Below, piece after piece: positions 1 through 15,262 of a DNA stretch of 18,456 nucleotides. Within the stretch, counting starts at the first letter, position 1, and each line of letters opens with the position of its first letter. Where the stretch lies: UHGV virus genome UHGV-0102749; one strand, 5' to 3'. Under the pieces are notes generated by a model. It had not been told where the DNA came from, made no database searches, and saw only the letters and a list, made by a program, of their open reading frames with translations. Origin of the DNA: a virus. The translations under genes and the position numbers were made by a program.

Positions 1-334
1 TGTTGCGACGGGCCAGTTGCTTAATGCGTGGGTGGGGCGCATCGTAAGAATCCGGCAGCGGCATTCCCTCACCATATGACATGGCATTGGATTGACCAGC
101 AAGTACCACCACGTAATACCACTCCGGCACGCTGCCGTGCTGGGGGGAATCAGGTGAGATGTCTGTAGTGCCATCGGCCACCATTGCCTGCATTAGATAC
201 CACGGGGTGCCGGGTTCGTAGGCAACCCGCGTCTCCCCCTGAAGATGCCACCCTTTCGCAAGATGTTCATTCACCTTTTGAGTCAGTTCAGCCTGTGTCA
301 TGGCTGTAATCAGTGCAAAGTTCTTACTGGTCAT
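1..334 (-). CDS. DUF1737-like N-terminal domain + SGNH/sialate-O-acetylesterase-like protein (5' part only; gene continues past window start)
   Basis: Minus-strand ORF from ATG at 334 (SD GGGAG ~10 nt upstream; ATGA overlap with stop of upstream ORF 331..642) with no stop before position 1. Translation MTSKNFALITAMTQAELTQKVNEHLAKGWHLQGETRVAYEPGTPWYLMQAMVADG...VVVLAGQSNAMSYGEGMPLPDSYDAPHPRIKQLARR; the GQSN block is the catalytic-serine motif of SGNH/SASA esterases. Missing from the ORF track because it is truncated. Confidence 0.55.
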   Translation of the reverse strand, partial: MTSKNFALITAMTQAELTQKVNEHLAKGWHLQGETRVAYEPGTPWYLMQAMVADGTTDISPDSPQHGSVPEWYYVVVLAGQSNAMSYGEGMPLPDSYDAPHPRIKQLARRN

Positions 335-642
335 TGTGTTACTCCCGTCTGGTGTGTCAGTTCGGCTATTCTCTTATCCAGTTCAGCAATGGCCCGTTTA
401 TCCGCGTTACAGGTTTCCAGTGCATCCAGAAGGCGGTCGCCCCATATTCCGAGGTTTCCCCATGTGGGTGGGTCAGGGAAGGGGGGAGGCGTTACCGGCA
501 TGGTCAGCGTCTGCGGTATAAGCCGGACTGACGGCGCTGGCCCTGGCGCGTTCTGCGTGCCTGCGCAACCTGTCAGTAAAACGAGCGTCAGGCAAAGCGT
601 GGGCGCATTCATCTTTTGCAATATCGTTGCGTAGCTGTTCAC
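331..642 (-). CDS. Rz1/LysC-like outer-membrane spanin lipoprotein
   Basis: Overlaps the 3' end of the Rz-like gene in another frame. Signal peptide with lipobox LTGC (…TLCLTLVLLTGCAG), then a proline-rich segment (PVTPPPFPDPPTW). Start is GTG at 642 (SD GGAGAGG) or ATG at 612. Confidence 0.55.
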   Translation of the reverse strand: MNSYATILQKMNAPTLCLTLVLLTGCAGTQNAPGPAPSVRLIPQTLTMPVTPPPFPDPPTWGNLGIWGDRLLDALETCNADKRAIAELDKRIAELTHQTGVTQ

Positions 643-868
643 GTCTTACCTCTCCGTCCTGATTGCGTTGCTGATTTTCCGCGCGGAGCTGAGCCAGCAC
701 CTGCTGCATATCCTGTACCCCGGCGCTGATGATATTCAGTGTGTCGACGGTACTTTTCAGGGTGCTGGCCTGCGCTTCGTTTCTGGCGTTCTCCCGGCCC
801 AGCGACCACGACAGACGCATGGATGTAATCAGAAGGAAAGCGACGCCAAGCGTGGGCCAGAGCTTCAT
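473..868 (-). CDS. Rz/LysB-like inner-membrane spanin
   Basis: ATG at 868 overlaps the endolysin stop (ATGA). N-terminal TM segment (LWPTLGVAFLLITSM) followed by a charged, Q/R/E-rich probable coiled-coil region. Position right after the endolysin fits. The ORF-track start at 1012 lies inside the endolysin gene and is rejected. Confidence 0.6.
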   Translation of the reverse strand: MKLWPTLGVAFLLITSMRLSWSLGRENARNEAQASTLKSTVDTLNIISAGVQDMQQVLAQLRAENQQRNQDGEVRREQLRNDIAKDECAHALPDARFTDRLRRHAERARASAVSPAYTADADHAGNASPLP

Positions 869-1257
869 GCCGGATAGGCTCCGTGTGGTAACTGAAAATG
901 CGGTCCGTCTTTCAGGGGCTTCCAGTCGCCGCCCCATTCCACCGGAATATTCAGTTCCTGGCTGGCCTGTCTGAATGCTGCTGCGATTTTTTCGTACAGC
1001 GGCCATTCCCATGACACCTGGTTGCCGACATAAGCCACAACATCCACGGCATGCCCTGTGAGATGGCGACTGTTCATGGTCTGGCTCTTGCCTGTGGTCA
1101 CGAGCTGCTTCTGACGATAACGACTGCGCAATCCTTCGGTGATACCAAAATCCACTTCCGAGATTTCCAGCGCCCGTCGGGTCACTTTCACCAGATCAGG
1201 ATTTACACCCTGCAAATTCTTTTCGCTCCGGCTGCTGAATTTAAATGTGTTGCTCAT
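865..1257 (-). CDS. Endolysin, peptidase M15 (zinc D-Ala-D-Ala carboxypeptidase-like) family
   Basis: 130 aa; motifs SRHLTGHAVDV and a downstream His are typical of the M15 metallopeptidase fold; flanked by holin and spanins; ATGA coupling at both ends. Confidence 0.8.
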   Translation of the reverse strand: MSNTFKFSSRSEKNLQGVNPDLVKVTRRALEISEVDFGITEGLRSRYRQKQLVTTGKSQTMNSRHLTGHAVDVVAYVGNQVSWEWPLYEKIAAAFRQASQELNIPVEWGGDWKPLKDGPHFQLPHGAYPA

Positions 1258-1577
1258 TCGTTCCTCTCCTTCACCCTGCGATCAAATATTGCAATAACCT
1301 TGTCGCGTGCTTTCTCTGCGCCCATAAAACCGATTGAGGCACCAAAAAACGTCACTGCATCCTCAGGGATCCCGAAGAAGCGCAGCGACCCGGCCACGGC
1401 CATGGCAAGAACGCCGCACGCCAGCGATCCCGTTACGGTCTGAACCAGTGTTCGTCCGTCATAAAGACTCATCAGCGCGGAAATGCTGACCGCCGCGCCT
1501 ACTGCATACACCGTTGGCAGGTGGTCAAAGAGCCACGCAATAACCTGCTCTGTGATCCCTGTTTGAATGGTGCTCAC
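1254..1577 (-). CDS. Holin (P2 gpY position)
   Basis: GTG start at 1577 with SD GGGGGGAG directly after the gpX stop. About 108 aa with three hydrophobic segments (VIAWLFDHLPTVYAVGAAVSISALMSL; VTGSLACGVLAMAVAGSL; AVTFFGASIGFMGA) and a charged C-terminus. The longer ORF-track start at 1796 overlaps gpX and gpL and is rejected. Confidence 0.55.
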   Translation of the reverse strand: MSTIQTGITEQVIAWLFDHLPTVYAVGAAVSISALMSLYDGRTLVQTVTGSLACGVLAMAVAGSLRFFGIPEDAVTFFGASIGFMGAEKARDKVIAIFDRRVKERNE

Positions 1578-1579
1578 TG

Positions 1580-1780
1580 CTACTCCCCCCACAACTGAAT
1601 CATTTCTCGTTTCTTCTTCTCCGGCTCCGGCATCTCCACTTCCTGCCCGGCGTCCAGAAATACCTGCTGACAGAGTCCGGGGTTGGCATCCAGCACCTTT
1701 TCGGTGACGCCCTGTGTCGTGCCGTAGTACCGGAAACAGAGCGAATCCACGGTGTCGCCTTCCAGTGCCTTCACTTTCAT
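1580..1780 (-). CDS. X: Tail protein X (LysM-like), P2 gpX homologue
   Basis: 66 aa, MKVKALEGDTVDSLCFRYYGTTQGVTEKVLDANPGL… matches P2 gpX as I recall it (MKTFALQGDTLDAICVRYYGRTEGVVETVLAANPGL…). ATG at 1780 shares one base with the gpL stop (TGATG). Confidence 0.8.
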   Translation of the reverse strand: MKVKALEGDTVDSLCFRYYGTTQGVTEKVLDANPGLCQQVFLDAGQEVEMPEPEKKKREMIQLWGE

Positions 1781-2274
1781 CAGCACAGCTCCGCAAACAT
1801 TCGCGGTCGTCCCAGAATGTCAGAGATGGCCCAGCTCACATCGCGCCACAAATCCGATGTCTGTATATCCAGTGCGTCCGCCCGGCGGTCGCCCTTGTCC
1901 GTTGTGTCCGCATCGCGGTAACGCTCCAGAATCAGGGCGCGTGTGGCGGTATAAACAGCATTGCGCCAGTGCCAGAGATTGACGCTTTCTCCGTTAATTA
2001 CAGGGGCCGGAACATCGGCCAGCGTCTGATAGCCAGCCGCCTGTTGTTCCTGCTGCCATGCTTCCAGCTCGCGGGTAACGTGTGCTATGGCCCCGGTGGC
2101 GGTATGCAGCAGGCGGGAGGTGGTCACGCGGCCCGGCAGTCGTACCGCCAGACGCAGCTCGCGCAGCACAATATCCGGCCAGAATGCACCCGCTGAAATA
2201 CGGGTATCGCCATCATCGGTGTCGGTGATGTCGTCCTCTGCGGGGCCGGGGTTAGTTCTGGCAACCATACTCAT
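1780..2274 (-). CDS. L: Head completion/stabilisation protein, P2 gpL homologue
   Basis: Conserved blocks LADVPA…INGES and DLWRDVSWAISDILGRPR match P2 gpL; ATG at 2274 with SD AGGAG. Confidence 0.75.
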   Translation of the reverse strand: MSMVARTNPGPAEDDITDTDDGDTRISAGAFWPDIVLRELRLAVRLPGRVTTSRLLHTATGAIAHVTRELEAWQQEQQAAGYQTLADVPAPVINGESVNLWHWRNAVYTATRALILERYRDADTTDKGDRRADALDIQTSDLWRDVSWAISDILGRPRMFAELC

Positions 2275-2375
2275 GGGGTTCACTCCTGAAAAAATCGGGC
2301 GGTGGGTGCGCGGTGTAAACGGTCACGGAGTCAAACCGGAACACCGCGCACGCCGCCCGCTGACGGGGTCAGTCG

Positions 2376-3176
2376 TTAACCGCGCTTTGCCTTCTGCGTC
2401 GCGGTGGTTTTTCGTGTTGCAGGCTTCTGCGTTGTCTTTTTACTTTTGCTGCTTTCGTCCTGCGTCTGCTGTGCGCTGGCGTCTTCTGGTGCGGCTGCGG
2501 AATCGGCTTTTTTCAGGGCGCGGGAAAGGGTTGCAATCTCGCGTTTCACACCTGCGTTCGGGTTCAGGTGCATCGCTTCGCGCAGCAGCTTCAGTGATGA
2601 GGCCATGTTGTCTGCATCGGTCAGGCCACGACGGGCAAAGGCACACGCCTTGCATAATTTGGCGCGCACTTCGTCCGGCATGTCCTGGTTGGCGACAATT
2701 TCCCAAAGTGTGTCCAGTGGTTCGATAAAGGCGGATAAATCCGCGTCGGCATCCGTCCCGGCCTGCGTCAGTACCGGGTTGCAGATTTCTTCGGTCAGTA
2801 CCGTGGCAGCAGTACGGCCAAAGTTATCCGGCATGATGAGGTTGTGACGGACCACATATGCACCAATACGCAGCGCCAGCGGAAGATCGCCGCAGTCAAT
2901 CGCCCACACCATCAGCGTGGCAATTACTTCGTCCTGTTGCCCGCCGTCAGTCTCCAGCGTTCCCTCAATCCAGCCGGAAAAGTCCGGCAACAACTCTTTT
3001 TTGATGGCGGCTTTCGCGCTTCTGGCCTGTACGCCCTTTAGCCTGGCCTGTGCCAGACGCAGACGATACAGCACCTCTTCATGCGCGGTACGCGCGGCGT
3101 GGTCCACACCTTCATTCGCCCGGCCTGCGCGCTGTGCCATCACGTTCTGCCAGTGTTGTTGTGCAGGAGTAATCAT
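2376..3176 (-). CDS. M: Terminase small (endonuclease) subunit, P2 gpM position
   Basis: 266 aa ORF between gpN and gpL; SD GGAGAG; basic Lys/Thr-rich C-terminal tail. Called from synteny and size. Confidence 0.65.
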   Translation of the reverse strand: MITPAQQHWQNVMAQRAGRANEGVDHAARTAHEEVLYRLRLAQARLKGVQARSAKAAIKKELLPDFSGWIEGTLETDGGQQDEVIATLMVWAIDCGDLPLALRIGAYVVRHNLIMPDNFGRTAATVLTEEICNPVLTQAGTDADADLSAFIEPLDTLWEIVANQDMPDEVRAKLCKACAFARRGLTDADNMASSLKLLREAMHLNPNAGVKREIATLSRALKKADSAAAPEDASAQQTQDESSKSKKTTQKPATRKTTATQKAKRG

Positions 3177-3221
3177 TTTTTCTCTCCGTTACAGGCGGGC
3201 ATGATGCCCGCCGTGAGTTGA

Positions 3222-4274
3222 TTAGCTGTCGGCGAACTTCAGGCCAGTGATCATCGCGCACTTGCCATAGTCTTCAACGACATAAGCGTCATTGATGGAC
3301 TGGTAGGTGGCGATGCGGTTGTATTCCGGCTCGTCTTTCATCAGGCGACGCATTGAACCTTTCTGCCAGTAAATCGACAGGTTGTTGAACGAGGTGATAA
3401 GCATCGTTGCATCCGGGAAGAACGGCGCAAGGAACACGCCCAGCCCGCCAATGGTGCGCGATGACAGGATGAGCTGCCCGGCAAGTAATTCCGCATTGGG
3501 ATTCTGGCCGCTGATGCTGTTCAGCACGGGCAGACGCAGCGAGTTAAACAGGTTGCGCCCCATAATCACCGCGAGGTCGTCAGCTTCCTTGTGCCATTCA
3601 TCCAGCAGGGATGAGCGCGCATCCTGTACCAGAGCATCGGCATTCGCATACTTACCCACGTGCGCCACAGTGTTGTCCATGTTGCGGGAGGTCAGCGTCA
3701 CGTCATTCATTACGCGCTCGCTGGCATCGGTTCTGATGTGCTCCAGCCAGCCCACGTTAACGTCCTGAAGCAGCTTGTTGGTGTGAAAATCAGACTCGTA
3801 GGCGTGGGATGTGCCGTTAAAGCCAATCATGATGCGATCAAGCGCTACCTGCCGGGCGATCTGTGTACTGATACGGGACTGAAAATCGCTGTGGGCCGCC
3901 CAGGTATCAAGCTGTGGGTACGAAATAAAGGTATCGTAGTTCACCTGTTCGCACTGGTACTGACGAGACTTCATATCGATCACGTTATTCGGGTTACGGC
4001 GTTTGATGCCGTCATAACTGCTATTCGTGCGCGCAATTGGCCCGGTGGTGTCCAGGAGGATTTTTTCGCCTTTCTGGTCGGTCACGCCGATCACGTTAAT
4101 TCTTTTCGTAAATTCGGTACTTTCCTTTGAGGCGTTTTCAAAACGCTGCTGCACCGCGGGTTCCACGGTAAATCGCGATACCAGTGCAGATACCGGGATA
4201 TTGTTAAGCGACGCCTGCTGCGCCATATAGCAACCCAGCTTGTTGCGGGTAATATCTGACATCACCAGATTCAT
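3222..4274 (-). CDS. N: Major capsid protein, P2 gpN homologue
   Basis: 350 aa; blocks FTVEP, IMIGFNGT, VGWL, YVVEDY and LITSFNNLSIYW match P2 gpN; SD AAGGAG before ATG 4274. Confidence 0.9.
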   Translation of the reverse strand: MNLVMSDITRNKLGCYMAQQASLNNIPVSALVSRFTVEPAVQQRFENASKESTEFTKRINVIGVTDQKGEKILLDTTGPIARTNSSYDGIKRRNPNNVIDMKSRQYQCEQVNYDTFISYPQLDTWAAHSDFQSRISTQIARQVALDRIMIGFNGTSHAYESDFHTNKLLQDVNVGWLEHIRTDASERVMNDVTLTSRNMDNTVAHVGKYANADALVQDARSSLLDEWHKEADDLAVIMGRNLFNSLRLPVLNSISGQNPNAELLAGQLILSSRTIGGLGVFLAPFFPDATMLITSFNNLSIYWQKGSMRRLMKDEPEYNRIATYQSINDAYVVEDYGKCAMITGLKFADS

Positions 4275-4297
4275 AAAAAATTTGCTCCTTTGTCTTA

Positions 4298-5134
4298 TCA
4301 GAAGTCAGCCAGCTGGTCGGAGGCTGCGCCCGTTGCGGTGAAGCGGTTCTGCGGATCGCCGTCCTGCGTGCGCAGTTTTTCCTTCAATGCTGTCAGCTCT
4401 GTGGTCAGTGACGTGATTTTCTGGCGGTCCTGCTGATGGCGGGTTTCCAGCACATTAAAACGGTCGATAATGTCGGCCTGTGACGTTGCAACGCCTTCCA
4501 CCGCTTCCTGAATTCGGGAGAAACTGGCGTCATCCGCTTTGCGGCCACGACCAATAATCCCCATTACGCGGTTAAACCACTGGGTGCCTTCTTCCTGGCG
4601 TTGTTCTGCCATTTCGATGATTTCAGACTCGATGGCTTCGGAGATAAGCGGTGCTTCACCCTGGATACTGTTGAACGTCATCACCGCCTGACGTTGCTGT
4701 GCCGTGAATTTCAGGCGCTCAGTGCCCAGGCTTGCCGGGGTGTCGGTCATCGCCAGCCCGACCAGATAGGCGCGCCCGTTAACGGAGAACTGCGGGTGCA
4801 GTTCGATACTGGAATAGATTTTCTTGCCGTCCGCGACAAGCTGCTTCATGCGTTCGGTAGGTTCGATTTCTGCATACAGCGCAGTACGTCCGGCCAGCGG
4901 ACCTTCCGTAATGTCTTCCGTACTCAGTGCGGTGACATCGCCCATTGCGGAAAATTCGCTTGACGGGCATGGCGAGAGATAGTGCTCAACGTTCACACGG
5001 GCAGCGTAAACATCCGGGTTGAAGTTCTCGGCGGCTTCACGCAGATGCACCGGGCTGATTTCGCGGCCATCAACAGTTGATCCGGAGACAGCCACGCGAA
5101 ACTTTTTGCGGGATGTCTTTTTTTCATTAGCCAT
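4298..5134 (-). CDS. O: Capsid scaffolding protein, P2 gpO homologue
   Basis: FRVAVSGSTVDGREISPVHL and YLVGLAMTDTPASLGTE match P2 gpO (FRIGVEGDTCDGRVIS…, YLVGLAVTDDPASLGTE). Start taken at ATG 5134 (SD GAGGGG); the ORF track extends to 5167. Confidence 0.85.
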   Translation of the reverse strand: MANEKKTSRKKFRVAVSGSTVDGREISPVHLREAAENFNPDVYAARVNVEHYLSPCPSSEFSAMGDVTALSTEDITEGPLAGRTALYAEIEPTERMKQLVADGKKIYSSIELHPQFSVNGRAYLVGLAMTDTPASLGTERLKFTAQQRQAVMTFNSIQGEAPLISEAIESEIIEMAEQRQEEGTQWFNRVMGIIGRGRKADDASFSRIQEAVEGVATSQADIIDRFNVLETRHQQDRQKITSLTTELTALKEKLRTQDGDPQNRFTATGAASDQLADF

Positions 5135-8753: not shown

Positions 8754-9030
8754 TCTCCAGCTCCTGTATCAATCAGATAATTTCACGACGCCTTCCAGTT
8801 TATCGCCACCATCGACGGTCAGACTCTTACGCAATTCCACCGCGTTGACTGTATGTTCTCGCTGCCTCAGTGCGATTTTGACGGCCTTACCTTTCACCCC
8901 ATCAAATCAAAAGCCCTCACGCCTTTTTCATGCTCAGCGTGAGAAATATGGCCATTCTGTTGTGTCTCTGCGACATCGTTCAGGGAATGCTATTTACCCC
9001 CTGAAACGCGGGCTGTTCCCCCGTCACCTG

Positions 9031-9236: not shown

Positions 9237-10436
9237 ATGGCTTTTACAAAAATCAGAATCGATAATCTGTTTTGCTTTGAAAATAGCATCCTTGACTTAA
9301 GCTTCTCCAGACCCCCGATCAACAGCTCACTGGAAGGTGAGTACATTGATGGATTTGAAAAGTTCTACTTCAAAAAGGTTTGCATCGTTTCTGGTGCTAA
9401 TGCATCTGGTAAAACATCTCTTGGTCGCGTGATGCTTTCTGTGTTGCGTTTTCTCAGTAGTGGTGTTTTCAATCCAGAACCGTTAAAAATTACTGACAAA
9501 AGAAAACCTGCATATATAGAGGTTGACTTTTTCCAGAGTCATTTAAAATGTTTGTTTAGGGCAGGTGTCTGGCTTAGGGCTATGGATGAGTCTGTTGTTG
9601 TAGAAAAAATTGCAATGGCATCTGTTGATTTAAGAAGCTCGGAATCATGCGCAAAGACGACCAAAAGACTGGATGCTGTGTGGGATGCGCAAAAGTTTGA
9701 ATTAAATGGTCAAAATAGATTTTTTTCAACCGAAAACGCTAACTCAAAAGAATTTTCCCAATATTTAGAGGATTTGGACTTTGTTCTTGGTTGGCATTTC
9801 ATTCTATCTGAAAACCAAGAGAACACGGATAAAATATCACGAATTAAGAAGAATGTGCTTAATAGCATATTAAAAACCTTTGACAATACTGTTAAATCTG
9901 TCTCAGGACTCACTCTTAAAGATGATGAGGGAAAGGAGGATTTGCAGGGTTATTCAGTAGTCTTCAATAATGGAGATAGAGTTATTATTGATATGGAAGG
10001 TGATATAACAAATAAAGATAGACTGTCTCGTGGTACTTATGAGGCAGTAAAAATATCCCATCTCCTGTCAGGAGTGCTTGAAGATAAAATAGAAGAGCGA
10101 GAGTTCAATTTCCCTTGCAGTGGGGTATACTTTTTGGATGAGAAAATGGCCTTCACTCATACTGAATTAGAAAAAATGATGGTCACGCTGATTATATCTA
10201 AGCTTTGCAGATATGGTCAATTTATATACACCACACATAATTATGATATCTTGAGCTTAGATCTGCCTACGCATTCATATACTTTTACTAAAAAAGTAGA
10301 TGGTGTAACCACTTTTGTTGAAGCTACCACACATCATAAAAAGAATGATCGCAATCTTTTAAATAAAGTAAAAAATGACTGTTTTGCAACAATACCTGAC
10401 GTTTCATTAATCGAAGAGATGCTATTTGAGGATTGA
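9237..10436 (+). CDS. ABC/AAA_21-type ATPase (OLD/AbiL/PARIS-like ATPase component)
   Basis: 399 aa; SD AAAGGTGG. Walker A GANASGKTS, Walker B-like VYFLDE, H-loop-like TTHN near the C-terminus. Strongly AT-rich relative to the flanking phage genes. Confidence 0.8.
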   Translation: MAFTKIRIDNLFCFENSILDLSFSRPPINSSLEGEYIDGFEKFYFKKVCIVSGANASGKTSLGRVMLSVLRFLSSGVFNPEPLKITDKRKPAYIEVDFFQSHLKCLFRAGVWLRAMDESVVVEKIAMASVDLRSSESCAKTTKRLDAVWDAQKFELNGQNRFFSTENANSKEFSQYLEDLDFVLGWHFILSENQENTDKISRIKKNVLNSILKTFDNTVKSVSGLTLKDDEGKEDLQGYSVVFNNGDRVIIDMEGDITNKDRLSRGTYEAVKISHLLSGVLEDKIEEREFNFPCSGVYFLDEKMAFTHTELEKMMVTLIISKLCRYGQFIYTTHNYDILSLDLPTHSYTFTKKVDGVTTFVEATTHHKKNDRNLLNKVKNDCFATIPDVSLIEEMLFED

Positions 10437-10438
10437 TT

Positions 10439-10957
10439 ATGGCAGTTAAGAAATTTGCTATTATTCTTGTTGAGGGAGATACGGAAAAAGCATTGTTTCA
10501 GGATTTCAAAACATTGCTAGGCTATCCTATTAAGAAAATAGTAATTGCTAATTTATGGAATGTTAATATAAATAAATACATGCCAGCATTAACCGAAAAT
10601 AGCGAAATCATAGTGGTTTTTGATACGGATAGGATTGAGAATCTTGATAGATTTAAGAATAATCTCAATCTATTAAAGGCGAAAAAACACACAATCCACC
10701 TATTTCAACAAACAAGCAATTTTGAGGATGAGCTTGCCAATGCTTGTGGTGTAAGTAATAGAAAGTTGTATTCTTGTTTTTGCCCAAAGATCATCTCTGC
10801 AGATAACTTCAAGAATGAATTCATTGCGCTGCGCAACAGGATGATGAAATTAGATGGACTTGGACTAAATAAAACGTTGCTTTGGAGTAGAGGGATTATC
10901 CCCCAATTGAGAGATTATAATTTTCATGTTTCCTCTCATGATGATTATTTTTTATAA
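10439..10957 (+). CDS. Small RloB/DUF4435-like (Toprim-like) protein, partner of the ATPase
   Basis: ATG at 10439, 2 nt after the ATPase stop (the ORF-track start at 10433 is TTG); SD GAGGA. N-terminal AIILVEGDTEKALF resembles the conserved EGxxE block of RloB/OLD-type Toprim-like proteins, followed by an acidic VVFDTDR motif. AT-rich. Confidence 0.65.
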   Translation: MAVKKFAIILVEGDTEKALFQDFKTLLGYPIKKIVIANLWNVNINKYMPALTENSEIIVVFDTDRIENLDRFKNNLNLLKAKKHTIHLFQQTSNFEDELANACGVSNRKLYSCFCPKIISADNFKNEFIALRNRMMKLDGLGLNKTLLWSRGIIPQLRDYNFHVSSHDDYFL

Positions 10958-11087: not shown

Positions 11088-11399
11088 CTAATCGGGAAAT
11101 AACGCCCGGATATTTCCGGCCATCTGACTGGTTATCTGTGCGGTGGGGGCTGTCTGTAACATGTGGCGTTCTGCCCTGGTTTGTGTCACTGATAACGCCT
11201 CATCGTCAGCCCATGCAGCCAGTCGGTAAGCCTCTGCCGGATTCATTTTCAGAAGTGCCAGCCCGGCCAGAAAAGCCACGCGTTGGCCGCTTTTGCGGGC
11301 TTCTGGTGTAAGGCTGTCCAGCCAGGCGCATGCTTCGCCTTCGTTCTTGACGGCGGCTGGCTTCAGATAGAAACTTATCCGTCTGGTTGGAGTCGTCAT
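11088..11399 (-). CDS. parR: ParR-like centromere-binding protein
   Basis: 103 aa from ATG 11399, 5 nt after the parM stop. RRISFYLKP…ACAWLDSLTPEARKSGQRVAFLAGLAL aligns with plasmid R1 ParR as I recall it (RRTIAFKLNP…DTLDSIPQGERSRLNRAALTAGLAL). The ORF-track start at 11534 overlaps parM and is rejected. Confidence 0.7.
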   Translation of the reverse strand: MTTPTRRISFYLKPAAVKNEGEACAWLDSLTPEARKSGQRVAFLAGLALLKMNPAEAYRLAAWADDEALSVTQTRAERHMLQTAPTAQITSQMAGNIRALFPD

Positions 11400-11403
11400 T
11401 GGT

Positions 11404-12363
11404 TTACTCCTTGTCCATTGCGTACAGCCCATTAACCAGAGCAAACTGTGGCACCCCGTCCGCGATGAAAGTCGCATTAACTCCGCAGGCTTCGCGGATA
11501 GCGGGTGCCACAATCTCCGCCCCTCCACCGACAACCATCACCCGCCCGTAACCCGAAAAACCCGCCAGCGCGCGGATCACGCGTTGTTTCAGTGTTTCTT
11601 CCTTTTCACGAATAACCGCCATCAGGCTGGCGTAATGCGCGTCATTGTGGATGTGCTGGCGCAGCCAGGCTTCATCATGGCGATGTTCGATAATGGTATT
11701 GGCGATGTGGTGACTGGTGCGCATACCGTTAGTGGCCATCACCGACAGTACGGCATCGGCCATCAGAGAAACGCCTACGTGTGGATCGCAAAACACCTGG
11801 CTGATACCTGCCAGTTGCCCCTGAACCTTTGCCACATCCAGCGTGGTTCCGCCCAAATCCACAATCAGCAGGGATTCAAACGGACTCATGTCAGCCAGTG
11901 CCTTAAAGCCTGCCGGAATGGATTCAGGCATAACCCGCACGTTACGGATAGTGAATGCCTCACCGTTCTGGTACTCCACCGGGCGCATGACGTTCGCTTT
12001 TTTGCGGTTGATGTTGGTCATATCCGGCTGTGCGTTTGTGTCGAAATACTCGCTCAGTGGCAGGGTGACAACCACATCCACCTCCTGTGGCGTGATGCCT
12101 GATTTGAGCAGCGCGTGATGAATGGCAATGACATTCACATCGCTGTACTGGTATTGCGTGTCGGTCGTCTGGACAAAGCGATCGCTGACCGGATCAAAAC
12201 CATAGCGCACGCCATCAAGCATGTAGTTCGCGGGCTGCGTGCCACCGAACGGCGCAGACCATTCCGACTTGAAGCTGTTCGGGCTGATGGCGTTGCGGCG
12301 TTCGCCGTTCTCAGTCCATGCCAGCTTGATGTTGGTGGAGCCGTCGTCGATACAAATTTTCAT
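11404..12363 (-). CDS. parM: ParM/StbA-family actin-like segregation ATPase
   Basis: 319 aa. MKICIDDGSTNIKLAW…SPNSFK…YQYSDVNVIAIHHALL…VMPESIPAG…LIVDLGGTTLD…VMVVGGGAE tracks R1 ParM block by block (phosphate-1 DDGSTN, connect/phosphate-2 DLGGTT, adenosine GGGAE); SD AAGGAA. Confidence 0.85.
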   Translation of the reverse strand: MKICIDDGSTNIKLAWTENGERRNAISPNSFKSEWSAPFGGTQPANYMLDGVRYGFDPVSDRFVQTTDTQYQYSDVNVIAIHHALLKSGITPQEVDVVVTLPLSEYFDTNAQPDMTNINRKKANVMRPVEYQNGEAFTIRNVRVMPESIPAGFKALADMSPFESLLIVDLGGTTLDVAKVQGQLAGISQVFCDPHVGVSLMADAVLSVMATNGMRTSHHIANTIIEHRHDEAWLRQHIHNDAHYASLMAVIREKEETLKQRVIRALAGFSGYGRVMVVGGGAEIVAPAIREACGVNATFIADGVPQFALVNGLYAMDKE

Positions 12364-12394: not shown

Positions 12395-12503
12395 TTTACG
12401 GGATTCTGAAATCCCGTTTTTGCCTGTTTTGTGCGCGCTTCATATATCGCTGCGCGTTTTTTGCTCATTTACGGGATTCGTGAGTCCCGTTTCTGTCTGT
12501 TTT
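12395..12503. repeat. Two ~36-bp direct repeats, each with an internal dyad (ACGGGATT…AATCCCGT) and a T-run, straddling the A stop codon upstream of parM
   Basis: Copy 1 (12395..12430) TTTACGGGATTCTGAAATCCCGTTTTTGCCTGTTTT; copy 2 (12468..12503) TTTACGGGATTCGTGAGTCCCGTTTCTGTCTGTTTT. Candidate parC-like centromere/operator or tandem terminator-like hairpins. Confidence 0.5.
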
Positions 12504-15262
12504 TTGTTTCCACTGGTCAGGCCACCCCGCAGCAGGTCTGCTTTGCGGCGGGCGCGTTCAGTGGTTTCACTGATTCTCTGTGCGTGCTCTGCGTCGCGGA
12601 TGGCGCGCAGCATGTCAGAAAGCACGGTAACGGGTGTTTTCATGGTGTTCTGGTCCTGCTGAAGTGTGGATGCCAGGCGTGCGGCGGCTTCAGGGTCTGA
12701 TGCCCCCAGCTGTGCCAGATAGCTGGCGACCGGGTTATGGCGGATCTCCGTGCTGCTTACGCCGTGATTACGGCTCAGGCGCTGCCAGAGCTGCGTGATT
12801 CGGCTGTCCGGGCGGGTATCCGGTTTGCGTACAATTTCAAATCCCTGCGGTGAAATGATGCTGCCGTCAACGTACAGACTGCCGCCCCGTAACAGGTGCT
12901 GCATCTGCTGTTCACCAATATGCAGGCCGAGAGATTCAGCAGACTCCCGCCATTCTTTAGCGAGTAATTCGTGGTTATCAGGCAAAGGCCGCTGCTGTTT
13001 GCGGCTCTGTGTCCAGCTCTGCATTTCATCACTGCTGTTTTTTGCCTGTTTGTCACGCAGCGAACGCATCAGCGCCCGGCGTTCGTGCCGTTTCAGTGAG
13101 CGCATCCATTCATCCACATCAACGCCGTCAGGAAGCTGCGGCCACGGTGCTGGCCGTTCTTCCGGCTGTTCTGTCCCGTTGTTGTCCGTTTCCTGTACAC
13201 GGGGACAGTTATTGCCACGAGTCCAAGGGGCGGCAGGGCCGCCCTGAAGGTCAAAACCATTTTCGCGGGCGCTGTCTTCCGCTTCCGGTTTACGTCTTAT
13301 CAGCTTCCAGTTATCCGGATGTGTGCACACACGGGAAGACTCCCCGATGAGTGGTGACCAGATCCCGTAAATCTGTACGCTCTGTTCGCCGTAATCGTTC
13401 GGCTCATCTGCGAGGTCGTAGGCGGTGCGAATCAGGTAGTCTTTGCGTGGAACAAGTACGCCGCCCTGTTTTTCAATGTAGGAGGCAAAACACCCGGCAT
13501 CAGCGGCAGCGAGCACTGCATCCATTGCGTCATCCTTCAGCCGTTGCGGGCCTTCCGGGTTGCGTGCCATCTGGTTGGCAAGGCGGCGCAGTTCACGCCA
13601 CACCTGACGGGAGGGGATGCCAAAGAACTGGAACTGGCGGACCCGGTGAAGGCGCGCCCAGCCGATGGCGCGCTCCACGCTCTCGGCCATTGATTTTCCG
13701 GTTTCGTGGTCAACGCGTGGCTTGCCCGTTTTCGGGTCGATACCATCCACGGCGCGGCTGTCCAGGTTCTTTCCGATGTAGGTGGCGATGTAGCTGGTTG
13801 GCGTGCCTTTTGAGCCGTCGACATACTCCACCTTAAAGCGCGGAGTAATATCATTGCCCAGCTCGTGGCGGTCTTCCTGAATGGCAATATCGCGGGTATG
13901 GGACACAATGGTGTCGATTTCTTCCGGATGTGCAAAGACCATCATATGCCAGTGCACGGTGCCGTCATGATGAGGCTCCACCGTGCGGATGCCATACCAG
14001 CGCAGGCCGTCGCGGTTCAGTTTTTTGCGGACCGCCGCAAAAAACGTGTTAACCAGGTAATCGCTGGAGTCGCGCATTGTGGCCCCGTTCCATTTGGGAT
14101 TTGGATGACCGTTCTCCGTTGTGGCGTGGTATTTTGACGGGCAGGTGACAGTCAGAAACACCGCTTTGTCGCCACGGGCTTCGGCCAGAAGTTCCAGCCC
14201 CTTCATGGTGGCCATCATTTCTGCCTTACGGTGAACCGGGTTACTTACTCCCGCGTAATACACCGTCTCGAGATCAATCGTGAACCCGTCTTCATTTTCC
14301 AGCATGAAACTTTTCAGGAAATCGCGTGTTTTCTCGCGCTGTGCGCGAAACTCGCTTAACGCGTCCTGGCTCAGATAGGGTGATGTTTTTCTGGAAACCA
14401 GACAGGCGGCGCGGAGTTGTTCTTCCCGCCACTCGCAACGTAACAGCCACAGTTTGCGTTTCCACCATTCCGCACAGGTCAGGCGAAGGATTGCGCCCGG
14501 CAGCAGCTCCGTGTCCGGTTCGTTCCTCCGGTCTTTGTCTGTTGTCAGAGCGTCATAATGTGGAGGCATGGCGTGCAGGTGTAACGCCATGCGGGCCAGC
14601 ATCTGATACGCCTTCAGCGTTACATCCATGGTCAGCTCGCCATCGGTCGCGCCAAAGCCATCGCAGAGTTTTTCAAAAGTGCCACTGAACATCGCCGCCG
14701 TCATGGTGGCCAGCGTCTGTATCTGGTGTTTGTTGAGCTGCGGCAGGTAAAGCAAATCGTCCAGGCGTTCGCGTCCGGCAAGGGAGCGATAACCCGGTGT
14801 CAGCCAGCGGTGATCGGTGCGCTCCAGACGTTCGAATATTTTGCGCAGGGTCCCACGCGCATAGCGTTCTGCCTGCCTGGCGTTTTTTCCTTTCTGACGA
14901 TCGGCTTCCTGTTTTTTGCGCAGGAAGGAGAGGTGGCGAATAAGCGGATCGCGCAGATAGGACGGCAGCAGGCGCAGCGAGGCCATGGCTTCATCCACCG
15001 CGCCGCGTGCCTGTTTTCTGGCGTCTCCTGCCAGTGTGATGGTTTTGTCCTGTTTTTCCTGTGCGTCCAGGCTTTTATTAATCAGGTTGCCCAGCGGCGT
15101 GGCGGAGAACGCCGCATCAGCCATTTCCTGGCGGCGCTCGTTCTCTGCCCGGTAGGCATCCAGCCAGGAGGAAAGCGCGGATTCAGGAGCGGGGATCCCC
15201 GTTCCTTCACGCCCCACTGCGTGGCGCGGTTGTTGCCAGTCCCTGATGTACTCTGCCGTCAT
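12440..15262 (-). CDS. A: Rolling-circle replication initiator, P2 gpA-like (HUH endonuclease)
   Basis: 940 aa. HUH motif VHWHMMVF and paired catalytic tyrosines in SYIATYIGKNLD (YxxxY), as in P2 A. Last gene of the leftward early operon. Confidence 0.8.
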   Translation of the reverse strand: MTAEYIRDWQQPRHAVGREGTGIPAPESALSSWLDAYRAENERRQEMADAAFSATPLGNLINKSLDAQEKQDKTITLAGDARKQARGAVDEAMASLRLLPSYLRDPLIRHLSFLRKKQEADRQKGKNARQAERYARGTLRKIFERLERTDHRWLTPGYRSLAGRERLDDLLYLPQLNKHQIQTLATMTAAMFSGTFEKLCDGFGATDGELTMDVTLKAYQMLARMALHLHAMPPHYDALTTDKDRRNEPDTELLPGAILRLTCAEWWKRKLWLLRCEWREEQLRAACLVSRKTSPYLSQDALSEFRAQREKTRDFLKSFMLENEDGFTIDLETVYYAGVSNPVHRKAEMMATMKGLELLAEARGDKAVFLTVTCPSKYHATTENGHPNPKWNGATMRDSSDYLVNTFFAAVRKKLNRDGLRWYGIRTVEPHHDGTVHWHMMVFAHPEEIDTIVSHTRDIAIQEDRHELGNDITPRFKVEYVDGSKGTPTSYIATYIGKNLDSRAVDGIDPKTGKPRVDHETGKSMAESVERAIGWARLHRVRQFQFFGIPSRQVWRELRRLANQMARNPEGPQRLKDDAMDAVLAAADAGCFASYIEKQGGVLVPRKDYLIRTAYDLADEPNDYGEQSVQIYGIWSPLIGESSRVCTHPDNWKLIRRKPEAEDSARENGFDLQGGPAAPWTRGNNCPRVQETDNNGTEQPEERPAPWPQLPDGVDVDEWMRSLKRHERRALMRSLRDKQAKNSSDEMQSWTQSRKQQRPLPDNHELLAKEWRESAESLGLHIGEQQMQHLLRGGSLYVDGSIISPQGFEIVRKPDTRPDSRITQLWQRLSRNHGVSSTEIRHNPVASYLAQLGASDPEAAARLASTLQQDQNTMKTPVTVLSDMLRAIRDAEHAQRISETTERARRKADLLRGGLTSGNKKQTETGLTNPVNEQKTRSDI

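Follow-up and report, generated by a model that had tools for sequence, protein, structure and literature searches.

A putative NanS-p-family sialate O-acetylesterase gene beside the lysis cassette of a P88-like prophage

The late operon of phages P2 and P88 runs in the order O-N-M-L-X-lysis-R-S. In the viral genome UHGV-0102749, an 18,456-nucleotide (nt) stretch of DNA to which we refer as a whole as the window, homologous genes stand in the same order, and an extra gene, present in the window with its 5' part only, adjoins the lysis cassette. In this study, we asked what this gene encodes and what it does at this site. We consider it probable that the gene, nanS-p, encodes a prophage-borne sialate 9-O-acetylesterase of the NanS-p family, which is carried by a P88-like prophage (Xuanwuvirus, Peduoviridae), made late and released by lysis. 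The enzyme family is already known; what sets this member apart is its Peduoviridae host, the site between lysC and gpR, and a separate subtype of the N-terminal DUF1737 domain.

The gene fragment in the window and its full-length orthologue

The nanS-p open reading frame begins with an ATG at 334-332 on the minus strand and is still open at base 1 of the window after 111 codons; translation, Pfam and a full-length orthologue identify it as the 5' part of a gene for a sialate O-acetylesterase of the NanS-p type, with codons 1-111 of 625 present (1..334, minus strand). The ATG overlaps the TGA of lysC (333-331) as ATGA, and a GGGAG Shine-Dalgarno sequence, read from the sequence, lies 7 nt before it within the lysC 3' end (342..346, minus strand). 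Thus nanS-p is translationally coupled via ATGA to lysC, the Rz1-like gene. This coupling had been proposed in the initial annotation, together with a DUF1737-like and SGNH esterase gene placed right after the lysis cassette, and both proposals are borne out at the positions given for them.

Residues 1-55 (170..334, minus strand) form a DUF1737 domain of a P2-specific subtype, called D-type here, which was delimited with a Pfam match (residues 4-53), an AlphaFold2 (AF2) model, fold matches in BFVD and the distribution of the subtype. The 111-residue fragment alone matched DUF1737 (PF08410) with E=9e-8 and 32.3 bits, the cut-off being 24. A disordered linker rich in Ser, Pro and Asp follows (residues 56-68, TTDISPDSPQHGS; 131..169, minus strand), for which AF2 gave a predicted local distance difference test score (pLDDT) below 50 at residues 56-66; it resembles the SISSP linker proposed as a processing site in a preprint on phage phi24B (10.64898/2026.04.10.717836). 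The SASA/SGNH esterase domain starts at residue 69 (PEWYYV), where the nucleotide match to lambdoid phages and the alignment to E. coli NanS (PDB 3PT5) both begin, and its first 43 residues lie inside the window (1..130, minus strand). They include the block I motif GQSN (residues 80-83; 86..97, minus strand), which aligns to AGQSN of NanS. The predicted catalytic nucleophile, Ser82 (window 91-89), falls on 3PT5 chain index 30, which is Ser19 in the alignment. The motif is preceded by the 55-residue N-terminal domain and the 13-residue linker, in line with the N-terminal domain of about 50 residues that had been read from the letters. Pfam did not find SASA in the 111-residue fragment alone and did find it in the full-length orthologue.

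The full-length gene was read beyond the window edge from 99.9%-identical prophages of Escherichia coli sequence type 131 (ST131). In JJ1887 (L001 12967-14844) it has 1878 nt and encodes 625 amino acids (WP_000202148.1), labelled in RefSeq merely as 'DUF6645 domain-containing protein'. Pfam assigned DUF1737 to residues 4-53 (E=1e-6), SASA (PF03629) to residues 75-271 (E=2e-11) and DUF6645 (PF20350) to residues 476-586 (E=2e-19). Residues 69-388 matched E. coli NanS/YjhS (PDB 3PT5; E=1.7e-125, 58% identity over 316 amino acids), and residues 430-622 matched the C-terminal lectin-like domain of NanS-p (PDB 6YP6; E=1.7e-29). The protein is hence laid out as DUF1737 (1-55), linker (56-68), esterase (~69-390), a Pro/Ser linker and a jelly-roll, lectin-like DUF6645 domain (~430-622). 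The initial annotation was right about the N-terminal domain and the esterase; its two-part architecture lacked the third, lectin-like domain, which lies beyond the letters it had seen.

Ser82 and His368 (THFSS) of the orthologue align to the Ser and His of NanS. Both were invariant in an alignment of 4 sequences and at least 90% conserved in an alignment of 26. The DxxH of canonical SGNH block V is absent and the sequence reads R-Q-T-H, as in NanS. The chain offsets of the 3PT5 alignment agree with the Ser19/His301 numbering of NanS. According to a review, mutagenesis showed the Ser and His of NanS to be catalytic and no acidic triad partner was identified (PMC10017367). With tblastn, the full protein matched 353 phage records, nearly all from Shiga toxin (Stx) or other lambdoid phages, with 48-80% identity end to end to the yjhS/nanS-p products of 350 lambdoid and Stx phage records, and PHROG 143 spans the full protein. 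Completing the gene from its relatives and searching it with hidden Markov models thus recovered both SASA and DUF1737 as well as the remaining catalytic His, along with a match to NanS itself. These features, which comprise everything about NanS-p that sequence can test, support the assignment of the predicted product to the NanS-p family of sialate esterases. The idea of a P2 tail gene with a chance GQSN was rejected: the full-length protein had no tail match in Pfam, and gpR (PF06891) and gpS (PF05069) are separate genes that come next.

The closest known systems are the NanS-p proteins of Stx and other lambdoid phages (933W L0105/z1466; phi24B vb_24B_21, or gp84), which have the same DUF1737-SASA-DUF6645 layout and the same Ser and His. 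Against the 933W/phi24B type, identity amounts to 48-53%; it reaches as much as 80-84% with the JLK-2012, Stx1a and L006 types. In both groups the gene sits in the late operon and adjoins the lysis cassette. The lambdoid genes, however, lie between Q/stx and the holin, whereas the gene here follows the lysis genes in the order lysC/nanS-p/gpR, and its carrier is a P2-like myovirus (Peduoviridae). Chromosomal NanS (YjhS, 3PT5) shares the SASA domain (58% over 316 amino acids), the Ser and His and the want of an obvious acidic triad residue. It differs in being a single-domain protein encoded in the nanCMS operon, whereas the protein here is phage-encoded and has DUF1737 and DUF6645 in addition.

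Late operon context and proposed release by lysis

The host element is a P88-like Peduoviridae prophage, as seen from its genes from holin to gpO and from its terminase and portal. By annotation, the late unit on the minus strand contains the gpO scaffold (4298-5134) and the P2-family major capsid protein (3222-4274), followed by gpM (2376-3176), gpL (1780-2274) and gpX (1580-1780), all within 1580..5134. The lysis cassette comprises a holin (1254..1577), an M15 metallopeptidase endolysin (865..1257) and the Rz-like i-spanin LysB with DUF2570 (473..868), likewise on the minus strand. Embedded in the DUF2570 gene (868-473) is lysC (331..612, minus strand; RefSeq start at 591), whose product, a proline-rich Rz1-like outer-membrane lipoprotein spanin recognised from its translation and LLTGC lipobox, begins MNAPTLCLTLVLLTGC. 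The left 1.3 kilobases (kb) of the window are 99.8-99.9% identical to vB_EcoM-569R5, vB_EcoM-705R2 and an ST131 P88-like prophage, and prophages of several hundred E. coli chromosomes, most notably of ST131, match to the same degree. In JJ1887, gpR ('phage tail protein') lies 23 nt 3' of nanS-p and is followed by gpS.

Phage P88 and its relatives do not have nanS-p. Homology to P88 ends within lysC at window position 387, 53 nt ahead of the nanS-p ATG, and in gpR it is found again after the first 42 nt; P88-type phages align to query positions 1-914 only. By blastn, the interval between the shared parts of lysC and gpR measures 93 nt in P88 and 1995 nt in the nanS-p-bearing prophage, and P88 is 94-95% identical on either flank of the insertion. 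The 1995-nt segment holds nanS-p together with a new 3' end of lysC (331..386, minus strand, delimited by a blastn comparison between P88 and the ST131 prophage as part of the inserted or replaced segment) and a new 5' end of gpR.

We searched this region for signals that would make nanS-p an independent unit. A consensus scan found three sigma-70-like promoter sites around the gene, against 4.4 expected from shuffled sequences, and the site closest to its start (L001 12941-12968) would initiate transcription past the ATG. Terminator-like sites around nanS-p did not exceed the shuffle expectation, with none on the plus strand after the gene and none above chance on the nanS-p strand between the upstream late genes and nanS-p. 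The G+C content of nanS-p (0.52-0.58) was not distinctive compared with its flanks. Because no promoter or terminator signal exceeded chance, nanS-p appears embedded in the operon, and since no terminator precedes the essential downstream genes R and S, we infer that it is transcribed together with the late genes. The late promoter is presumed from synteny: TGT-N12-ACA was absent from the terminase/gpO intergenic region, where a TGT-N15-ACA (~window 5225-5205) was all that was found. Of the initial description as a late-expressed moron, late expression is therefore probably right, whereas autonomy fell away, the gene having no promoter or terminator of its own above chance.

On this arrangement, nanS-p would be expressed only once the prophage has begun to express its late genes. 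Chromosomal NanS has a signal peptide. By inspection we saw none in NanS-p, and we therefore propose that the protein leaves the cell through phage lysis, released by the cassette that immediately precedes its gene. By analogy with lambdoid NanS-p, the enzyme would then strip sialic acids outside the cell, whether free or bound to mucin, of their O-acetyl groups, surviving lysogens could use the freed N-acetylneuraminic acid (Neu5Ac), and the C-terminal lectin-like domain would probably target glycans. For the enzymatic and growth-benefit steps we draw on what has been found for lambdoid and O104:H4 alleles (summarised in PMC8065619 and PMC8319020): the NanS-p enzymes of EDL933 and five NanS-p proteins of O104:H4 C227-11 were all active esterases that allowed growth on 5-N-acetyl-9-O-acetylneuraminic acid (Neu5,9Ac2) and deacetylated mucin glycans, and upon induction the expression of nanS-p rose strongly together with that of the late genes (review PMC8065619). 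O104:H4 genomes also carry the lysC-nanS-p-gpR arrangement, with WP_000202135 as the nanS-p product.

Several points weigh against a lysis-released, soluble esterase in this prophage. P2-family prophages often induce rarely, which limits any benefit that depends on lysis. The window contains codons 1-111 only, and the intactness of its copy is judged from relatives. Most complete copies in IMG/VR are intact (625-656 amino acids); two copies, in L018 and L019 (open reading frame of 286 amino acids), carry an in-frame deletion of 339 amino acids that joins ...SAFTQ to TTDGKL... and removes the catalytic His, and two further P2-like copies, in L028 (218 amino acids) and L035 (273 amino acids), are frameshifted. 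Among complete E. coli genomes, none aligned to the window over its full length; the closest one, which is without nanS-p, reached a coverage of 93% with 96.5% identity. The window prophage looks like a mosaic, with an ST131-type left 1.3 kb, a differing cargo slot and best whole-window matches that do not have the gene. Finally, a purely soluble enzyme leaves the conserved, P2-specific N-terminal domain unexplained.

The P2-specific N-terminal domain and the shared esterase-lectin part

When about 100 homologues were grouped by their N-termini, several types of DUF1737 emerged (A, B, C and D). The D-type follows the pattern ...LITAM...GW-LQG...A(Y/S)EPG(T/V)PWYLMQ. Lambdoid nanS-p genes align to the gene here (85-89% nucleotide identity) solely from codon 69 (query nt 507, PEWYYV) to the stop. 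At the protein level, the protein here (P0011) has an N-terminal domain that shares 50-61% identity with other P2-borne copies, 31-37% with lambdoid type-A and 22-37% across all lambdoid-type N-terminal domains compared, which also have another hairpin loop. The order is reversed in the rest of the protein: SASA is 67-70% identical to other P2-borne copies and 87-93% to the closest two lambdoid type-A proteins (P0018, P0028), and the corresponding values for the C-terminal domain are 34-67% and 80-95%.

The D-type was met only in P2-like contexts. In IMG/VR, a P2-family capsid gene lies ~4 kb upstream in all 34 D-type loci, and most contigs long enough have gpR next; a lambdoid holin takes its place in three. 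The same pairing with a P2-family capsid was seen in all 376 E. coli genomes with the lysC context and in all four loci of a second P2-like lineage (see below). Among 80 type-A loci, in contrast, none had a P2 capsid gene upstream and 59 had a lambdoid holin downstream. A tblastn search of phage records with the D-type domain (E<0.01) returned three P88-like records only, a protein homologue search with the 68-residue N-terminal region returned nothing but fragments of nanS-p as found here, and a scan of genome contigs with one genome per species did not contain it; phmmer with the 56-residue domain gave 10 matches among 1.84 billion representatives, some of them stand-alone DUF1737-like proteins of 54-74 amino acids. 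The initial comparison with lambdoid NanS-p holds for the kind of protein; its N-terminal domain differs from the lambdoid one and is a distinct subtype.

These comparisons indicate that the esterase and lectin part has been exchanged with lambdoid copies while the N-terminal domain was retained. An additional observation concerns the O104:H4 genome FDAARGOS_348 (L007 9301-11181), whose nanS-p is a gene-conversion mosaic by sliding-window identities: the flank and N-terminal domain are 100% P2-type, SASA and most of the C-terminal domain are 99-100% identical to the lambdoid allele L006, and the final ~200 nt are P2-type again.

Five IMG/VR contigs were found to switch phage type within nanS-p. 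P2 capsid and lysis genes stand upstream and a lambdoid holin downstream in L026, L034 and L037 (gene at 9001, 9001 and 4806, respectively); in L074 (gene at 10001) lambdoid Q lies upstream of nanS-p, with gpR/gpS on its downstream side, and L097 (gene at 2769) combines a lambdoid-left/P2-right identity profile with gpR/gpS downstream. These five hybrid junctions may reflect recombination or inversion between prophages, or assembly chimeras. The esterase and lectin domains also occur behind other N-termini. The 689-residue protein P0125 (L016 10001-12070) has SASA and DUF6645 without DUF1737 and a different N-terminus of ~190 residues, and its gene closes a Mu-like prophage, where a gin-like resolvase immediately precedes it and DUF1378 and DUF826 follow. 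P0094 (917 amino acids) joins a tail-fibre N-terminal domain (PF08400) to SASA and DUF6645. The classical lambdoid Escherichia phage 434 (OL657226.1, 43456-43659) has a type-A DUF1737 on a SASA-family esterase in the '434B nonhomology' region.

What might a P2-specific N-terminal domain be for? The AF2 model of residues 1-68 consists of a strand (3-11), a helix (14-26) and two further strands (30-40 and 43-55), with a core pLDDT of ~90. In BFVD its fold matched stand-alone DUF1737 proteins from many phages; a Foldseek search of the PDB returned nothing significant, and no solved DUF1737 structure was found there. The hairpin and third strand (A-x-EPG-x-P-W/F-YLMQ) are invariant within the D-type, and the hairpin is the segment that varies most in length and sequence across N-domain types. 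This pattern would fit a contact surface that determines specificity.

A precedent for such a surface comes from phi24B, whose gp84 (NanS-p) is reported in a 2026 preprint to be a virion protein: a hexamer of its DUF1737, with Tyr42 of the beta-hairpin loop as the anchor, plugs the pores of facet-centre hexons in the T=9 capsid, and cleavage at Ser/Pro-rich linkers subsequently removes the catalytic and lectin domains (10.64898/2026.04.10.717836). It is accordingly conceivable, at rather less than even chances, that the D-type DUF1737 docks the esterase onto the hexons (gpN) of P2-family heads. In that case, P88-like virions would be fitted, at least for a time, with a sialate esterase and lectin that aid passage through mucus or sticking to it, and the N-terminal domain would be an address label specific to the head type. 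This reading is compatible with the lysis-released enzyme proposed above. The protein here shares with gp84 the predicted fold of one helix and three strands, with the hairpin at residues 40-42, followed by a Ser/Pro-rich linker. The restriction of the D-type to the neighbourhood of P2-family capsid genes, the retention of the N-terminal domain while SASA and the C-terminal domain were swapped (also in the O104:H4 gene conversion), the pattern of hairpin conservation and the presence of the esterase-lectin cassette on tail-fibre (P0094) and Mu-like-prophage N-termini all argue for it.

On the other side, a simpler account of the linkage is that the N-terminal domains are too divergent to recombine and so stay with the upstream backbone. 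The anchoring Tyr42 and the loop sequence of gp84 are not kept here, where the hairpin tip reads E-P-G. In addition, gp84 belongs to a podovirus and is restricted to the facet-centre hexons of a T=9 shell, whereas the head here is of the P2 family, and P2-type heads have T=7 and are not known to have a facet-centre hexon. The preprint that provides the precedent is not peer-reviewed. With the same reserve, we tentatively suggest a more general picture, in which the N-termini of NanS-p proteins (DUF1737 types A-D, Mu-like and tail-fibre) are address labels for heads or virions, the D-type docks onto gpN hexons and the shared cassette bridges recombination between P2-like and lambdoid prophages, giving rise to hybrid junctions. 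One esterase-lectin cassette would then spread among unrelated families of temperate E. coli phages by recombination inside the conserved SASA.

An enzyme that modifies the phage receptor is a considerably less likely alternative. It would deacetylate sialic acid-bearing glycans on the surface of bacteria (O-acetylated K1 polysialic acid or sialylated O-antigens, for example) and thereby expose or destroy the receptor, a possibility that has been raised for NanS-p (review PMC8065619). The fusion of a tail-fibre N-terminus to SASA/DUF6645 in P0094 has the layout of a tail-borne enzyme, and the P2-like nanS-p arrangement occurs in O104:H4. The O104:H4 O-antigen contains O-acetylated sialic acid. 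The protein here, however, has no module for attachment to a tail, and the tail-fibre cluster does not include its gene; its catalytic domain is close to that of NanS, whose substrate is host-type Neu5,9Ac2, and the gene is found in many serotypes without sialylated surface glycans.

A functionless passenger or decaying remnant, or a P2 tail gene that contains GQSN by coincidence, is very improbable: the deletions or frameshifts in L018, L019, L028 and L035 and the defects of the JJ1887 prophage itself (IS1, frameshifted tape measure) would fit decay, but homology reaches E values down to 1e-125, the catalytic and near-invariant residues are all retained, most complete copies are intact, and two P2-like lineages with capsids 62% identical retain the gene at the same site. 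Chance resemblance and the tail-gene reading are refuted by this homology and by gpR and gpS being distinct downstream genes. A NanS-p-family esterase made with the late genes and released by lysis, perhaps also carried on the virion, remains our preferred reading.

Carriers, the rest of the prophage and implications

We determined how widespread the arrangement is in E. coli. The order lysC-nanS-p-gpR was present in 373-376 of 5426 complete genomes (~7%) and in about one-third of the 1101 genomes with this type of lysis cassette, including ST131, O104:H4 and O26 Shiga toxin-producing E. coli; it is common rather than exceptional in this species. The segment composed of the lysC 3' end, DUF1737 and linker occurred in 376 genomes, always in the lysC/DUF6645 context, and 367 of these genomes share it with an identity of 99% or more. 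A second P2-like lineage (P0082, P0049, P0068 and P0098) also has the gene between LysC and gpR in each case; it has a lysozyme-type endolysin, and its PF05125 capsid protein is 62% identical to that of the window.

In the second lineage, a small DUF1378 gene was seen between nanS-p and gpR (L008 12036-12200; L012 12046-12213; L013 12105-12257). DUF1378 also follows nanS-p on its 3' side in lambdoid prophages (L014, L015), a further likeness between the lambdoid loci and this lineage, and it has the appearance of a hitch-hiker, a marker of cassette transfer from one phage family to another. The gene is known from 'non-Stx prophages' (PMC10462455). The literature that we searched did not mention nanS-p in P2-like phages or an association of N-terminal domain and head type, and searches for DUF1737 with P2-like phages and for an acetylesterase of ST131 prophages returned nothing relevant.

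Elsewhere in the window, the variable slot between the portal and the ParM/partition genes contains a candidate two-gene anti-phage defence system. Its first gene (9237-10436, plus strand) encodes an AbiLi-like AAA ATPase (PADLOC AbiLi, E=1e-27; Pfam AAA_15) and its second (10433-10957, plus strand) a protein resembling AbiLii/OLD-TOPRIM/RloB (E ~5e-5); JJ1887 has DUF4760 and a hypothetical protein in the same slot instead. Plasmid-type ParM and 'partitioning/stability' genes adjoin a gpA-like replication endonuclease (11088-12363 and 12440-15262, both minus strand), which suggests possible episomal maintenance. Outside the window, the JJ1887 prophage has IS1A in its tail-fibre region and a frameshifted tape-measure gene (L001 20864-25300), and is probably defective.

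The NanS-p esterases of Stx phages have been discussed as contributing to fitness and virulence. Here, P2-like prophages prove to be regular carriers of the gene, in ~7% of complete E. coli genomes, with pandemic ST131, O104:H4 and O26 among the carriers, and the uninformative label 'DUF6645 domain-containing protein' can be corrected. There is, consequently, a larger pool of nanS-p genes to be counted when gene dosage is related to growth on O-acetylated sialic acids, and nanS-p paralogues are possible sites of recombination between unrelated prophages. The combination of a P2-specific N-terminal domain with a freely exchanged catalytic part offers a simple natural test system for the proposed binding of DUF1737 to capsids. 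If docking is true, virions of P88-like and related Peduoviridae would be decorated with a sialate esterase and a lectin.

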